This document shows, in pieces, positions 2,907 to 12,957 of a stretch of DNA of 64,000 nt. Within the stretch, counting starts at the first letter, position 1. Every line of letters begins with the position of its first letter. Both the position numbers and the translations under genes were made by a program. The stretch is from an uncultured Actinomycetes bacterium (lineage in GTDB: Bacteria > Actinomycetota > Actinomycetes > S36-B12), in NCBI GenBank assembly GCA_903960135.1, contig CAJBZP010000069.1, positions 1,708 through 65,707 on the forward strand, written 5' to 3'. The notes beneath the pieces are model-generated. The model did no database searches. It was not told the DNA's origin and was given only the letters and a program-made list of their open reading frames with translations.

Positions 2907-4538
2907 ATGTCGCCGCCGGTCACCTCAGCAACTGGGGCTGATAAAGCTTTTTATCTGACGACACCTATCTATTACGTAAATGACGCGCCACATATCGGGC
3001 ATGCCTATACGACCACCGCCGGTGATGTGCTGACCCGTTGGCACCGCCAGCGCGGGGAACAGGTTTGGTTCCTCACCGGCGTTGATGAGCACGGCACCAA
3101 AGTGCAGCGGGCCGCCGACGCTGGGGGCGTGACCCCGCAGCAGTGGGTCGATAATTTGGTCGAGAAGGAGTGGCTGCCGGTACTCGAGACTGTCGACGCC
3201 GCTAATGACGACTTCATCCGCACCACTGAGCCGCGCCACGCGGAACGGGCGCAGCGGTTCTGGGAGCAGGTGCGCGAGCACGGGTTCGTCTACTCGGCAC
3301 CTTATGAGGGCCCCTACTGCGTTGGTTGCGAGGAGTTCAAGTTTGCGGCCGACCTAGTGCCCGGGACCGGTGAGTATGAAGGCCAACTGATTTGTCCGGT
3401 GCACGGGCGCCCCTGTGAGCAATTACAAGAAGAGAACTGGTTCTTTCAGTTGTCGGCATTCACCGAGCGGCTCATCGAGCACTACGAAGCTAATCCAGAT
3501 GCAATCCAACCGCGCAGTGCCTACAACGAGGTGATGTCTTTCATTCGAGGTGGATTAGTAGATATTTCAATGTCTCGCTCGAGTGTTTCGTGGGGTATCC
3601 CGGTGCCGTGGGAGACCGGCCAAGTCATCTACGTCTGGTTCGATGCACTGTTGAATTACGCGACCGCTGTGGGCTACGGCACTGACCCTTCATCACCTGA
3701 AGGTGAGCTGTACGCCAATACTTGGCCCGCTGACGTGCACCTAGTTGGTAAAGACATCCTGCGCTTCCACGCCGTCTATTGGCCGGCGATGTTGATGGCC
3801 GCTGGCGAGCCGCTACCGCGCAAGGTCTTTGCGCATGGCTGGCTGCTAGTTGGCGGCGAGAAGATGTCCAAGAGCAAGTTAACCGGGATTGCACCAAGTG
3901 AGATCATCGACCACTTCGGTTCCGATGCCTTTCGGTACTACTTCCTGCGCGCCATCGCCTTTGGCCAAGACGGCTCGTTTTCCTGGGAAGATATGTCGGC
4001 TCGGTACACCGCCGAGCTGGCAAATGGTCTGGGCAACCTAGCCGCACGCGCTACGGCCATGGTGGTGCGTTACTGCGAGGGTATCTTGCCGGCCGCCACG
4101 GCTGATGGTGCCGCCGAGGAGGGCCTGCAGGCGCTGCTGGTGTCGACGGCGGCTAACGCCGATGCCGCGATGGTGGCACTGGACTTCTCGACCGGCATCA
4201 CGGCGGTCAAGGATTTCATCGAGGCGGTCAACGGGTATGTCACCGAGCAGGAGCCTTGGGTATTGGCTAAGGATCCTGCTAATCGCGAGCGCCTTGAGAC
4301 CGTTCTCTACACCATTTGCGAATCGCTGCGCGCTATCGCGGTGCTCTACAACCCCTTGATGCCAAAGACCATGCAGGATTTGTGGGGACAACTAGGCGCC
4401 AATGGGTCAGGAGCAACTGGGCTCGGGCCATTGGCAGCGCAGCGAATTGCTGGTGTTGCCGTTTGGGGGCAACTACCAGTGGGCTCGAGCGTGACTAAGG
4501 GCGATTCACTCTTTCCGCGTCTGGAAGAAACCACCTGA
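2907..4538 (+). CDS. metG: methionine--tRNA ligase
   Basis: Class I aaRS signatures: PHIGHAYT (HIGH) and KMSKSKL (KMSKS). Length is 543 aa. Confidence 0.95.
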   Translation: MSPPVTSATGADKAFYLTTPIYYVNDAPHIGHAYTTTAGDVLTRWHRQRGEQVWFLTGVDEHGTKVQRAADAGGVTPQQWVDNLVEKEWLPVLETVDAANDDFIRTTEPRHAERAQRFWEQVREHGFVYSAPYEGPYCVGCEEFKFAADLVPGTGEYEGQLICPVHGRPCEQLQEENWFFQLSAFTERLIEHYEANPDAIQPRSAYNEVMSFIRGGLVDISMSRSSVSWGIPVPWETGQVIYVWFDALLNYATAVGYGTDPSSPEGELYANTWPADVHLVGKDILRFHAVYWPAMLMAAGEPLPRKVFAHGWLLVGGEKMSKSKLTGIAPSEIIDHFGSDAFRYYFLRAIAFGQDGSFSWEDMSARYTAELANGLGNLAARATAMVVRYCEGILPAATADGAAEEGLQALLVSTAANADAAMVALDFSTGITAVKDFIEAVNGYVTEQEPWVLAKDPANRERLETVLYTICESLRAIAVLYNPLMPKTMQDLWGQLGANGSGATGLGPLAAQRIAGVAVWGQLPVGSSVTKGDSLFPRLEETT

Positions 4539-8491: not shown

Positions 8492-9514
8492 TCAGATGTT
8501 AGTCGCAGGTGCTACATAGCCGCGCACCCTGCGGCGCATTGCTGGGTCCTTTAGCTTGTTGGCAATGCGCTGCGGCTTAGGCCAGCGCACATCGGTGACC
8601 AGTTTCATTGACTCCATCATGCGAATCACCCGAGCACTCATATCGAGTTGGCCCTTAAGGACCCCGTGACGAGCCAAGGTGGGGTCGGCGTGGTGGAGGC
8701 TGTGCCAAGACTCACCAAATGACACGATGGCCAACCACGCGACATTCGATGAAAGATCCCGGTTGTTAAATGGTCGTGTACCGAACACGTGACAAATTGA
8801 GTTAATCGACCAAGTGACGTGATGCACGAGTGCGATGCGGATGAGCCCGCCCCAGAACAAGCCGGCGAGTGCGCCCATCCACGACCAAGTGATGAGTCCG
8901 CCAAGGAGGGCCGGCAGCAAGATTGAGGCTGTGAGGATTGCCGGGAAGAACTGCGAGATGCGGCGCAGATCCTTGTCCGCTGCAATATCGGGTGCGTACT
9001 GCTCGATGGGGGTTTGGGCTTCGTCAAATAGCCAACCGACGTGCGCGTAATAGAGGCCTTTTGCAACAGCGCGCTTTGAGGTGCCATAACGCCATGGGGA
9101 ATGCGGGTCGCCAACCTCGTCCGAGAACTGGTGGTGCTTGCGGTGGTCGGCAACCCATTGGTCAAGTGAGCCTTGGATCGCCATCGAACCGGCAATCGCC
9201 AACCCGATTTTTACCGCGCGTGGGGCCTTGAAGGCACCGTGGGTGAAATAACGGTGGTAGCCCAACGTGATGCCACCGGCGGTGATCGCCCAGAACAAAA
9301 GGATCAGGCCGGCATCTACCCAGGTGAAAAACCCGGCCCAGAAAATCGCCAGTGGGATCGCCGCGACCACCGCGAGCAATGGCAAGATGACAAAAACCGC
9401 GATGGTGATTTTCATGCCGTTATTGAGTAAGCCTTCGTCGGTTTGGCCGCGAACACCACTGTTGGTAAAAGTTGGCTTGACTGTGCTTAGCTCGAGTTCG
9501 GGCGTAATCGGCAC
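8492..9514 (-). CDS. membrane acyl-CoA (delta-9 type) fatty-acid desaturase
   Basis: Three His boxes (HRYFTH, HRKHHQFSD, HSLHHADP) and 4 TM segments. Start uncertain. GTG 9514 is preferred (GGGAG 4 nt upstream) and gives about 341 aa; ATG 9415 is the alternative. The track ORF start at 9688 overlaps the tRNA gene and is rejected. Confidence 0.8.
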   Translation of the reverse strand: MPITPELELSTVKPTFTNSGVRGQTDEGLLNNGMKITIAVFVILPLLAVVAAIPLAIFWAGFFTWVDAGLILLFWAITAGGITLGYHRYFTHGAFKAPRAVKIGLAIAGSMAIQGSLDQWVADHRKHHQFSDEVGDPHSPWRYGTSKRAVAKGLYYAHVGWLFDEAQTPIEQYAPDIAADKDLRRISQFFPAILTASILLPALLGGLITWSWMGALAGLFWGGLIRIALVHHVTWSINSICHVFGTRPFNNRDLSSNVAWLAIVSFGESWHSLHHADPTLARHGVLKGQLDMSARVIRMMESMKLVTDVRWPKPQRIANKLKDPAMRRRVRGYVAPATNI

Positions 9515-9547
9515 CGGGCTCCCTAGGGGCTGTTGGGCACCTTCGGC

Positions 9548-9580
9548 ACCGTAACTTACGCTACCGTAACCAAGGTAAGT
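9548..9580. promoter_or_regulatory. candidate operator in the desaturase-TetR-MarR promoter region
   Basis: Direct repeat ACCGTAAC at 9548-9555 and 9563-9570 (15-bp spacing). It is interleaved with the inverted repeat ACTTAC (9554-9559) / GTAAGT (9575-9580), 34-66 bp upstream of the preferred start codon. Confidence 0.3.
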
Positions 9581-9643
9581 GCGCCATTGGAAAACGGTGC
9601 ATTTAAGGTGATGCCCCCCAAGTGTTTTTGGGCATGTCATTGA

Positions 9644-9714
9644 TCCCGGGTCGTCTAGCGGCAGGACAGCGGACTTTGAATCCGTCAACGGTGGTTCGAT
9701 CCCACCCCCGGGAG
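9644..9714 (+). tRNA. tRNA-Gln (anticodon UUG)
   Basis: Hand-folded cloverleaf. Acceptor TCCCGGG/CCCGGGA. D stem GTCT/GGAC. Anticodon stem GCGGA/TCCGT with loop CTTTGAA (anticodon TTG). Variable loop of 4 nt. T arm GGTGG-TTCGATC-CCACC. Discriminator G. CCA is not encoded. Confidence 0.9.
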
Positions 9715-9845
9715 CTTTTCAATCTCCGGGGCCCCCGCACTTGGCCCACCCCCGGGAGCTTTTCAATCTCCGGGGCCCCCGCACTTGGCCCACCCCCGGG
9801 AGCTTTTCAATCTCCGGGGCCCCCGCACTTGGCCCACCCCCGGGA
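9701..9845. repeat. perfect 44-bp tandem repeat, 3 full copies plus a 13-bp partial copy, starting inside the tRNA-Gln 3' end
   Basis: Unit CCCACCCCCGGGAGCTTTTCAATCTCCGGGGCCCCCGCACTTGG at 9701, 9745 and 9789, all identical. A partial copy CCCACCCCCGGGA is at 9833-9845. The first 14 nt of the unit are the tRNA T-stem/acceptor 3' strand plus discriminator. Confidence 0.95.
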
Positions 9846-9872
9846 ACTTGCAGTTAGCAGTACGGTCAAGGC

Positions 9873-11375
9873 GTGGCCAACTGGGTAACTAAGCGGACGA
9901 GGTGGGCTTTTGTTCCAATGGCCCTGCTGTTCGCGCTGGCCACGGCAATTCCCGCATTTGCTTGGGCACCCGAACGCCCAGTCCCGACGGTGGCGGACAC
10001 CGCTTACCTGATTGGGGCGCCGAAGTTTCGCACCATCTGGGTCGATCCCAAGGCCGGTAAAGATTCCCGAAGCGGTGCAACACGGGGGCAGGCACTGCGC
10101 ACCTTGGATGCGGCTTGGCGCAAAATTCCTCAGGGCAGGAAAATCACCGGCAAAGGTTTCCGCATCCTCATCACGCCTGGCGCGCTCAGGCCAAGTGAAG
10201 TTCCAAACTACTTCGAGTCGCGTTATGGCACAGCACAGGCACCGATCTTGATCCAGCCGGCTAGCGGTACAGGCACGGTCACCCTGCCCGCGGTGAATAT
10301 TTTTGACACTAGTTATCTGTATTTCATCGGACTTAAGTTTTCATCGGAACTCGGCGATGCTGTGCACTGCGAGAAGTGTGATCATTTTCTCTTGCGCGAC
10401 AGTGTTGTTCGTGGAGCGCCGCGAGATAGTGGCAAGGTCGGTGATCTCGTTAAGTTCAACCAATCCCAATATGTGTATCTGGAGAATAACGATATCTCGG
10501 GTGCATCCGACAATGTCGTAGATTTCGTGGCGGTTCAGTACGCCACATTGCTCAATAACAGGATTCACGACGGAAGCGATTGGTGCGCCTACGTAAAGGG
10601 GGGTTCGGCCAACATTCGCGTCAGCGGCAATGAGTTCTTTGACTGCGGGACGGGGGGCTTCACCGCTGGCCAAGGCACGGGATTTCAGTTCATGACGGCC
10701 CCTTGGATCAAATATGAAGCCTACGACATTGACGTGATCGACAACGTGGTGCATGACGTCGAAGGCGCCGGCCTCGGGGTGAACGGTGGATACAACGTCC
10801 TGATGGCCGGAAACATTCTTTATCGGGTAGGCGAGCGCGATCACCTGCTGGAGTTTGTAGCCGGCCATCGGTCATGCGATGGCATGGCGAGCGATGATGG
10901 GCGTGGCAAATGTGGTGCCTTTTTGGCCCAAGGCGGTTGGGGCACCACGAGGGTAGATGATGGTGAGAATTACGTTCGAATACCGAATCGGCATGTTTAT
11001 GTGTTCAACAATGTGATCGTAAATCCACCAGGAACGCAGAGTTCTGGTGCACAAATTACCGTCGCAGCGCCATACTCCGGGCAATGGCAGGCGGGCTCAA
11101 ATGTCGCCGTCCCGACTGTGTTTGATGATGACCTGCAGATCCGTGGGAACCTGATTTGGGATGGGGATGCTGATCACGGCAGCGGCCTTGGCGGTGAGGA
11201 TTCGGGCTGCCGGAATGACAATGCCACCTGCAATATTAGGCAGTATTTGGCCGATAATGCGGTTAACCGGTTCTACCCGGAGCTGGTTGCTCCGGCTGCC
11301 GGCAATTACGCCCTGACCCCAGCAACCGCCGCGGCCTTGGCGGCGCAGCGCGTTGCTATCCCGGCCTTCAACTGA
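9873..11375 (+). CDS. secreted right-handed parallel beta-helix repeat protein (pectate-lyase-fold; polysaccharide lyase/hydrolase-like)
   Basis: Signal peptide (KRTR n-region, hydrophobic core, AFA-WA). Repeated beta-helix turns with N/D-rich ladders (ENNDISGASDNVVDF, LLNNRIHDG, VIDNVVHDVEGAGLGV, LMAGNILY, FNNVIVN). GC is lower than in the neighbouring genes. Confidence 0.75.
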   Translation: MANWVTKRTRWAFVPMALLFALATAIPAFAWAPERPVPTVADTAYLIGAPKFRTIWVDPKAGKDSRSGATRGQALRTLDAAWRKIPQGRKITGKGFRILITPGALRPSEVPNYFESRYGTAQAPILIQPASGTGTVTLPAVNIFDTSYLYFIGLKFSSELGDAVHCEKCDHFLLRDSVVRGAPRDSGKVGDLVKFNQSQYVYLENNDISGASDNVVDFVAVQYATLLNNRIHDGSDWCAYVKGGSANIRVSGNEFFDCGTGGFTAGQGTGFQFMTAPWIKYEAYDIDVIDNVVHDVEGAGLGVNGGYNVLMAGNILYRVGERDHLLEFVAGHRSCDGMASDDGRGKCGAFLAQGGWGTTRVDDGENYVRIPNRHVYVFNNVIVNPPGTQSSGAQITVAAPYSGQWQAGSNVAVPTVFDDDLQIRGNLIWDGDADHGSGLGGEDSGCRNDNATCNIRQYLADNAVNRFYPELVAPAAGNYALTPATAAALAAQRVAIPAFN

Positions 11376-11490
11376 GCGGCACCTGACTCGGTAGAGTTAG
11401 GGACCTTCCCCGGTCCGTCTTAGGCGCAGTGCAGTGCTTGACCCCAAGCACGTCCCGCATGGGCGCCCGCAGGTGAGCGAAGGTGGTGTT

Positions 11491-12957
11491 ATGGCGATGA
11501 ACCGCCCCAGCGCCGTCATCATCCTTGCCGCTGGCGAGGGCACCCGGATGCGGTCTGCGACCCCAAAGGTTCTGCACAGCATCGCCGGGCGGTCACTTCT
11601 CGGCCACGTCATCGAGGCGGCTGCCACTTTGGAGCCCGAGCACCTGGTCGTCGTAGTTGGTCACGGCCGCGAGCAAGTCATCGAGCACATTGCCGAGATC
11701 GCCCCCTGGGCGTTGATCGTGGTCCAAGCCGAGCAGCATGGCACCGGTCATGCGGTTCGGGTAGCCCTTGAAGATCTTGATGCACGGGGGGCGGTGTTCA
11801 GTGATGCGCCGCTAGTGGTGCTAACAGGTGATACCCCGCTACTCTCCGGCCGCACCTTGGTGCAGTTGGTGGTGGCGCACGGGCAGGCTAGCGCCGCTGC
11901 GACCGTACTTACCACGAACCTTGATGACCCATTTGGCTACGGCCGTGTCATCCGAGATGCGGGCGGTGGCGTCCAGCGCATTGTCGAACAAAAAGATGCA
12001 TCTCCAGACGAACTTGCGATTGCGGAGATCAATTCCGGTATGTACGCCTTCGACCTAGTGAAATTACGTGGTGTATTGGGCCGCCTGACCGCCGACAATG
12101 CGCAAGGCGAGCAGTATCTCCCCGACGTCATCGGCCTGTTGCGCAGCGAGTCTGATGCGGTCGCAGCATCAATGTGTCTGGATTCATCGGAGGTCATGGG
12201 AGTTAATGACCGCGTGCAGCTAGCGGCGGCTGCAGCCATCATGCGTGATCGCATAAATACCCAGTGGATGCGTGATGGTGTGGCTATCGCTGATCCCGCT
12301 ACCACCTGGCTCGATGTCGACGTCGACATCGCACCCGATGTCACGATCTTGCCAAACACCACCTTGCGCGGCCCGACTTCGATAGCTTCGGGAGCGCAGA
12401 TCGGCCCGGGCACCACGCTGGTGTCGTGCGAAGTCGCCGAGAACGCCACTGTCATCCACACCTGGGCTGAACTTGCGGTGATCGGCGCAGGTAGCCAAGT
12501 CGGCCCATTTACCTACCTGCGCCCAGGCACGGTGATGGGTGCCGATACCAAAGCTGGGGCATTCGTCGAAATCAAGAACTCGGCCATTGGGGATTCATCC
12601 AAGGTGCCGCACCTGTCTTATGTTGGCGATGCGCAGATCGGGACAGGCAGCAATATCGGCGCGGCCACCGTGTTCGTCAACTATGACGGAGTGGAGAAGC
12701 ACCGAACTGTCATTGGTGATCATGTTCGAGTCGGCAGCGACACCATGCTCGTGGCGCCGGTGACAATTGGCGACGGTGCCTACACGGCCGCGGGCTCGGT
12801 AATTACCGAAGACGTGCCGCCGGGGGCAATGGGGGTTGGGCGAGCACGTCAACGCAATATCCTCGACTGGGTGCTTAGGCGTAGGCCAGGTACTGAATCA
12901 GCTAGGGCCGCAGGTCAATCAATCAAACCGGTAACTCAGGCGCAGGAGGATAAGTGA
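11491..12957 (+). CDS. glmU: bifunctional UDP-N-acetylglucosamine pyrophosphorylase / GlcN-1-P N-acetyltransferase
   Basis: LAAGEGTRMRS nucleotidyltransferase motif and C-terminal left-handed beta-helix hexapeptide repeats. ATG 11491 chosen (GAAGGTGG upstream); the track ORF starts at 11434. Confidence 0.95.
   Translation: MAMNRPSAVIILAAGEGTRMRSATPKVLHSIAGRSLLGHVIEAAATLEPEHLVVVVGHGREQVIEHIAEIAPWALIVVQAEQHGTGHAVRVALEDLDARGAVFSDAPLVVLTGDTPLLSGRTLVQLVVAHGQASAAATVLTTNLDDPFGYGRVIRDAGGGVQRIVEQKDASPDELAIAEINSGMYAFDLVKLRGVLGRLTADNAQGEQYLPDVIGLLRSESDAVAASMCLDSSEVMGVNDRVQLAAAAAIMRDRINTQWMRDGVAIADPATTWLDVDVDIAPDVTILPNTTLRGPTSIASGAQIGPGTTLVSCEVAENATVIHTWAELAVIGAGSQVGPFTYLRPGTVMGADTKAGAFVEIKNSAIGDSSKVPHLSYVGDAQIGTGSNIGAATVFVNYDGVEKHRTVIGDHVRVGSDTMLVAPVTIGDGAYTAAGSVITEDVPPGAMGVGRARQRNILDWVLRRRPGTESARAAGQSIKPVTQAQEDK

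Follow-up and report, generated by a model that had tools for sequence, protein, structure and literature searches.

The short tandem array that opens inside the tRNA-Gln(UUG) gene in our 64-kb stretch of DNA (64,000 nucleotides, hereafter the window) is best explained as a single-locus, non-coding minisatellite (VNTR) of the slippage type, anchored in the 3′ end of the tRNA gene, a reading to which we give a probability of roughly 75%. The array is non-coding and, in the window and in the metagenome records searched, occupies a single locus. Its 44-bp units, within the ~10–100 bp range of VNTR units, lie head to tail; their number differs between strains of one species, and they are homogenised within each genome and diverge between lineages (L009, L016). 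Together, the strict periodicity, the whole-unit differences between strains, the identity of units within a genome combined with species-specific variants, and the restriction to one locus constitute the signature of a minisatellite. The relevant features of the window are the following.

8492..9514, minus strand: fatty-acid desaturase gene, divergent from the tRNA gene (Pfam PF00487, translation)
9644..9714, plus strand: tRNA-Gln(UUG) (Rfam RF00005, ARAGORN); its last 14 nt, 9701–9714, open repeat unit 1
9701..9744, plus strand: repeat unit 1, the 14 nt of the tRNA 3′ end and the 30-nt trailer CTTTTCAATCTCCGGGGCCCCCGCACTTGG (Tandem Repeats Finder, exact-pattern searches)
9715..9736, plus strand: native tRNA trailer CTTTTCAATCTCCGGGGCCCC, where the invariant columns of the alignment lie (sequence comparison)
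9745..9788, plus strand: repeat unit 2, same sequence as unit 1 (Tandem Repeats Finder, exact-pattern searches)
9789..9832, plus strand: repeat unit 3, same sequence as unit 1 (Tandem Repeats Finder, exact-pattern searches)
9833..9849, plus strand: partial unit of 17 nt that closes the array, CCCACCCCCGGGAACTT; G is replaced by A at 9846
9918..11375, plus strand: gene for a right-handed beta-helix protein of 485 aa (Pfam PF13229; P0001 is 100% identical)
11434..12957, plus strand: glmU (Pfam), used to fetch 80 related loci

The tRNA-Gln(UUG) gene spans 9644–9714 according to Rfam (RF00005, 58.9 bits) and 9644–9715 according to ARAGORN. It carries a U1-A72 pair and a G73 discriminator, does not encode CCA, and is identical in sequence in the window's relatives L004, L009, L012 and L016. 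Tandem Repeats Finder delimits the array at 9701–9849 (period 44, 3.4 copies, 99% matches, score 291), the sole strong tandem array in the 64-kb window, and its makeup is three perfect 44-bp units followed by a 17-nt partial unit with one mismatch. Each unit comprises the final 14 nt of the tRNA and the adjoining 30 nt. Perfect copies of the 14-mer CCCACCCCCGGGAG start at 9701, 9745 and 9789, a copy with one mismatch starts at 9833, and a pattern search of the 64 kb places the 30-nt non-tRNA part at exactly three sites (9715, 9759 and 9803), with no further copy at up to three mismatches, where shuffled sequences lead one to expect 0. These searches bear out the preliminary description in its central point, namely that the tRNA 3′ end seeds a non-coding 44-bp array with three mismatch-free copies. 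Two of its details need correction. The truncated fourth copy, given there as 13 nt (9833–9845), is 17 nt long and reaches 9849 across a single mismatch at 9846, a position that is A in the window and G in the same-species contigs L005, L089 and L090. The 14 nt are indeed the tRNA 3′ end, but they do not begin with the T-stem: position 9701 is the last T-loop base, and the T-stem 3′ strand, the acceptor 3′ strand and the discriminator follow it. The features of a CRISPR array are absent, as the entire 44-bp unit is identical between copies and no unique spacers separate them. The dispersed REP-type family against which the preliminary description had set its tRNA link was likewise not found, and the repeat is confined to the single locus.

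Several observations concern the tRNA gene and its surroundings more broadly. The tRNA and the array together make a long open frame on the plus strand of the window (9622–9888, 88 aa). A 106-aa public gene call over the tRNA and the repeat in a relative (L004, 1180–1500) was dismissed as a spurious ORF with no Pfam match. The region upstream of tRNA-Gln (window 9600–9643; L010 9795–9835) is highly conserved (GCATTTAAGGTGATG...AAGTGTTTTTGGG...) and contains a short inverted repeat, TGCC...GGCA, that reads TGTC...GACA in L010, an apparently compensatory change; it may form a leader hairpin or serve as an operator beside a TAAGGT −10-like box. The gene order of the neighbourhood is ksgA, ispE, a MarR-type and a TetR-type regulator, the desaturase gene (minus strand), tRNA-Gln, the beta-helix gene, glmU and prs, and the annotation of the identical contig L001 adds L25 and pth after prs.

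The array is old and restricted to one clade, in which it arose before the two subclades separated. A GlmU scan with one genome per GTDB species returned 80 loci, and in most of them tRNA-Gln lies upstream of glmU, a linkage conserved across Actinomycetota. The closest GlmU proteins (87–93% aa) belong to freshwater MAGs labelled Actinomycetota, 'acSTL', Candidatus Nanopelagicales, Baikal or ELA, which identifies the host as an uncultured freshwater actinobacterium. In a sister species (L009, glmU 91% nt), three perfect units stand directly before glmU with no beta-helix gene. All of them share two private substitutions (CAAG and CAGTTGG, for CAAT and CACTTGG in the window), and this sharing is concerted evolution. 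The other subclade, whose glmU is ~79% identical to that of the window at the nucleotide level, includes a genome with two units that are only 89% alike and a partial unit (L016), so that the duplication must be old, as well as two genomes with one unit and a partial (L004 and L012). In L010 and in L011, to which L002 and L003 belong, the tRNA leads directly into the first ~22 nt of the trailer (CTTTTCAACCTCCGGGGCCCC or CTAATCAACCCCGGGGCCCC), and a second copy is lacking. These ~22 nt are thus kept in all close relatives, the repeat-free ones included. Because repeat-bearing genomes fall in both subclades of the glmU neighbour-joining tree, the simplest history is one origin before the split and two losses. 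Among the 77 tRNA-Gln loci searched, those outside the clade all lack a repetition of their own tRNA 3′ 14-mer within 3 kb, and the duplication is absent from ~65 more distant actinobacterial tRNA-Gln/glmU loci. Of 241 million metagenome records, a single contig contains the exact spacer, and there it lies at this locus alone. Between the subclades the 30-nt spacer is 80–93% conserved compared with ~79% for glmU, and the DNA beyond the array is unalignable. This conservation leaves room for some constraint on the trailer.

Three further observations on the related loci deserve mention. Two independent Logan contigs of the L011 species, L002 and L003, start at the same base (GGTTTAAACACC...), which corresponds to L011 position 7922, ~200 nt downstream of tRNA-Gln; the shared start suggests a further assembly-breaking repeat or a strain variant in the tRNA-Gln flank of that species. 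A 62-aa ORF in the variable region of L003 has no Pfam match. The contig L013 (CAMDKJ010000160.1) is titled 'MAG: Bifidobacterium breve', and its GlmU is 90% identical to that of the window at the amino-acid level and groups with freshwater actinobacterial MAGs, so the taxonomic label of the contig or of the MAG is, by this grouping, probably wrong.

Copy number varies within the species of the window. The alleles compared share 99.5–100% nucleotide identity in glmU, and an exact-protein look-up with the desaturase encoded at 8492..9514 served to retrieve same-species alleles. Two independent MEGAHIT k141 contigs of 220 kb, each from a different ENA sample (L089 and L090), have one unit and a partial, the window has three units, and the JGI metagenome contig Ga0247837_1002131 (L005) has four perfect units with a 17-nt partial. 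The comparison between strains that the preliminary description had proposed thus yields 1, 3 and 4 units in one species, although these numbers derive from short-read metagenome assemblies, which collapse perfect arrays. How far each number can be trusted was assessed by a de Bruijn graph simulation with true copy numbers from 1 to 10. At k = 119–141, any array of three or more units gives a shortest walk of exactly three units, and at k ≤ 55 every copy number gives one. The three units of the window and of L009 are therefore lower bounds if the assemblies are short-read. The single unit of the k141 contigs is reliable, since every 141-mer across the tRNA, the unit, the partial and the flank must exist. 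What is firm within the species is the polymorphism between one unit and at least three; the larger exact numbers are not firm. Two further contigs break at the array: L001, whose glmU is 100% identical, begins exactly at a unit boundary, as is expected where an assembler meets a repeat, and L014, which belongs to the other subclade, likewise begins inside the array.

The number of units would change through slipped-strand mispairing at replication or through unequal exchange from one unit to another. The register of the repeat opens inside the gene, so that the first unit always remains joined to the tRNA body. Each expansion or contraction then leaves an intact tRNA gene, which makes changes in copy number neutral for the tRNA and keeps the 14-mer invariant in all copies. 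The preliminary description had attributed the identity of the copies to very recent slippage expansion, gene conversion or selection; the pattern that the units are identical within each genome and differ between the window and L009 supports recent slippage or homogenisation. We infer that slippage is the mechanism and that the array has no dedicated function. It would probably do no more than lengthen the GC-rich spacer that separates the tRNA from the downstream gene and supply short direct repeats for deletion or insertion in the neighbourhood.

Besides the collapse of perfect arrays in short-read assemblies and the conservation of the spacer, two points run counter to this explanation. 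The terminal partial unit cannot arise from slippage alone; it would require either a pre-existing direct repeat or a former full unit truncated by later indels. The partial unit is 16–25 nt long depending on the species, and it ends in CTT in the window and L016, in CcTTTC in L009 and in CTCATTTCA in L004, L012 and L014. Because slippage conserves the length of the partial and this length nonetheless varies by lineage, truncation through downstream indels is easier to reconcile with the data than a fixed att core, and we favour a truncation origin. The other point is that tRNA-derived core copies also occur in relatives at the boundaries of the beta-helix gene, which hints at recombination other than simple slippage. 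As an alternative source of the unit, a degenerate second tRNA-Gln gene was considered and set aside, as a comparison of the spacer with the tRNA body revealed no convincing similarity by eye.

The alternatives to a slippage minisatellite differ in what they would make of the extra tRNA 3′ ends. An assembly artefact, in which an assembly-graph loop was traversed arbitrarily, is a natural suspicion because a de Bruijn graph closes into a cycle on perfect 44-bp repeats, three is exactly the shortest valid walk at k = 119–141 for any true number of three or more, and two public contigs (L001 and L014) break at the array. However, the shortest-walk argument makes three a lower bound and not an overestimate, and multi-copy arrays appear in independent assemblies of different projects (ENA, JGI and GTDB MAGs; L005, L009 and L016). 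A graph loop could not yield the diverged units of L016, and a contig break at a unit boundary should need two predecessors, that is, more than one unit in some reads. An artefact is thus extremely unlikely. Site-specific recombination would instead make the copies its products or substrates, either as scars of successive integrations or as a row of pseudo-attB sites for an integrase elsewhere that moves cargo such as the beta-helix gene. Tyrosine integrases that target tRNA genes classically leave duplicated tRNA 3′ ends, and the locus shows such direct repetition in the four copies of the 14-mer (one of them with a mismatch). The gene beside the array also behaves suggestively. The window, L005, L011, L016, L004, L013 and L015 have the beta-helix gene between tRNA-Gln and glmU, whereas L009, L010, L012 and L014 lack it, and its G+C content in the window (0.50–0.57) is below that of the adjoining genes (~0.60–0.65). 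In L016 it is bounded by a core-derived 9-nt direct repeat, ACCCCCGGG (2921–2938 and 4469–4486), of which the gene-free L012 (803–830) and L014 have a single copy at that very junction. In L004, the gene stands between direct repeats at least 62 nt long (98% identical; 1309–1370 and 3005–3066), which start with the acceptor-derived CCCGGGAGCT. These latter points concern the neighbouring gene and not the array. Against recombination, the preliminary description had noted that the window holds no integrase, and we found neither an integrase nor an excisionase within ~5 kb on either side, where the genes are ksgA, ispE, the TetR-type regulator, the desaturase, the beta-helix gene, glmU, prs, L25 and pth, nor in the interval from tRNA-Gln to glmU in those close relatives that were inspected. 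A BLAST search of 9644–9880 against 50,697 phage and 72,556 plasmid records, the check for an attP match that had been advised, hit the tRNA body only, and the 22-mer of the tRNA 3′ end and the 21-mer of the spacer are each absent from 2.9 million viral contigs, collections in which elements from the host's uncultured lineage may be incompletely covered. A lone 17-mer match in a viral contig lies inside an ORF of an AT-rich contig and was put down to chance. The DNA past the first copy is the native trailer, found also in the repeat-free L010 and L011, and not element DNA; the arrangement left by integration, with element DNA between the repeats and the native trailer displaced to the distal copy, is therefore not what this comparison shows. 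The strict 44-bp periodicity, the strain-level changes in copy number and the species-specific homogenised units are also unlike integration scars. Thus, the attL/attR interpretation raised in the preliminary description is not supported for the array. As for the beta-helix gene, its protein diverges roughly in parallel with GlmU (88% and 83% aa compared with 91% and ~88–90% aa), so that vertical descent with repeat-mediated deletions is sufficient; its homologues led to syntenic loci for the closest four only, and P0006 and P0007 are not syntenic. On balance, site-specific recombination is an improbable source of the array. In a narrower form, the tandem core copies would be secondary attachment sites, and a recombinase encoded elsewhere or by a phage would use CCCACCCCCGGGAGCT to insert or excise a non-autonomous beta-helix cassette; we regard this as quite improbable. 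If it were true, the array would serve as a landing pad anchored in the tRNA gene, as opposed to passive slippage DNA.

A functional role in cis is the remaining alternative, with the array as a tunable leader or attenuator, or as a module for tRNA 3′ processing or termination, and its copy number as a contingency switch. Its attraction lies in position and conservation. The start codon of the beta-helix gene is just 68 nt past the end of the array, and no sigma-70-type promoter consensus occurs in 9300–10100, which makes read-through from the tRNA promoter plausible. Among the trailer nucleotides kept in all close relatives is the complement of the acceptor 3′ strand, the conservation of the spacer is close to that of coding DNA, and an 8-bp GC hairpin can form in each unit (8 pairs, one bulge, 9-nt loop, −13 kcal/mol as RNA). 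The inverted repeat of the preliminary description is therefore present, but it confers no stability beyond that of dinucleotide shuffles: on the plus strand the z scores are +0.17 for the unit, +1.0 for the array and +1.24 for the tRNA with the array. When both strands were folded as RNA and as DNA, only the minus strand as DNA was marginal (z = −2.1). The suggestion that the trailer competes with the acceptor stem is not supported by the minimum-energy fold of 9644–9880, which keeps the cloverleaf. The suggested row of three processing or terminator hairpins fares no better, since fold energies are at or above the shuffle means, the hairpin is followed by CCCCCGCAC and not by the U-tract of an intrinsic terminator, neither a U-tract nor a terminator-like site occurs on either strand of 9300–10100, and Rfam, at both gathering and E-value thresholds, finds the tRNA only. 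In addition, changes in the distal arm from CTC to CGC, CCC or TTC stand opposite an invariant GAG, and they break pairs instead of compensating. The coupling to a downstream gene is also inconstant, as L009 has the array before glmU without the beta-helix gene, and L010 and L011 have no repeats at all. A functional cis element is accordingly an unlikely explanation. A tRNA-like minihelix formed from the spacer and the next core was also considered and rejected, since inspection shows no T-stem pairing.

Two other elements were noticed between tRNA-Gln and glmU. In one subclade, a palindromic element of ~73 nt (GCTGAATGCGCACGTTTTTGTCGTGAAA...TTTCACGACCAAAACGTGCGCATTCAGC) follows the last core copy, with arms of 27–28 nt that are 96% complementary and a 17-nt loop (L004 1326–1398, L016 4488–4558, L012 ~822–895, L014 ~55–128). 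Its outer flanks reach CCCGGGA...TCCCGGG, the two strands of the acceptor stem. Rfam gave no match for the element, and the window lacks it; candidate identities include a small mobile palindrome and a terminator for the upstream gene, among others. Directly upstream of and across the annotated glmU start, a block at window positions 11390–11440 (GATAGAGTTARGSMACCTTCCCCGG...GGCGCAGTGCAGTGCTTG) is conserved in all close relatives (L009–L016), with or without the beta-helix gene. Its conservation and position indicate that it is probably the promoter, the leader or the true start region of glmU.

As a minisatellite, the array offers a natural means to tell strains apart by copy number (1, 3 or more, 4) in an abundant uncultured freshwater actinobacterial lineage, and it accounts for the several public contigs of this lineage that stop at tRNA-Gln. 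It also serves as a warning that k caps the copy number recovered in short-read assemblies. Current understanding of tRNA biology and of mobile elements is unchanged by it. Its value lies in being a clean bacterial case of a minisatellite whose register opens inside an essential tRNA gene, where the gene survives the changes and the tRNA-derived part cannot drift. Additionally, core copies mark the ends of the variable gene between tRNA-Gln and glmU, and the repeat may thereby contribute to local gene gain and loss.

The mechanism and the class of the array are already well known, and in the literature searched we came across no account of a bacterium with a minisatellite anchored at the 3′ end of a tRNA. 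The attL and attR sites of tyrosine-integrase elements (prophages, ICEs and integrative elements of actinomycetes such as pSAM2 or SLP1) resemble the array in their downstream repeats of a tRNA 3′ end and in the variable gene that adjoins them. In contrast, the copies of the array are only 30 bp apart and strictly periodic, vary by whole units and are accompanied by no integrase, attP or foreign DNA. REP/BIME elements and intrinsic terminators share with the array a GC-rich imperfect hairpin in an intergenic position downstream of a gene, whereas the array is not dispersed, has no U-tract, and its hairpin is no more stable than its composition leads one to expect. Tandem repeats in the control region of animal mitochondrial DNA can include part of a flanking tRNA gene and are attributed to slipped-strand mispairing. 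They are like the array in a register that opens inside a tRNA gene, in variable copy number and in near-identical units, although they are organellar and subject to another mode of replication, whereas the tRNA-Gln array is chromosomal, bacterial and retained across species. Together with these mitochondrial repeats, the closest analogues of the array are the bacterial intergenic VNTR loci on which MLVA typing relies. The MIRU-VNTR loci of Mycobacterium tuberculosis, an example of them, are likewise intergenic head-to-tail repeats of tens of base pairs in an actinobacterium, with a copy number that varies between strains, units homogenised within the genome, and slippage or unequal exchange as the accepted mechanism. 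MIRUs are dispersed over ~40 loci, often in operons with small overlapping ORFs, whereas the tRNA-Gln array has one locus and its first unit is part of a functional tRNA gene.
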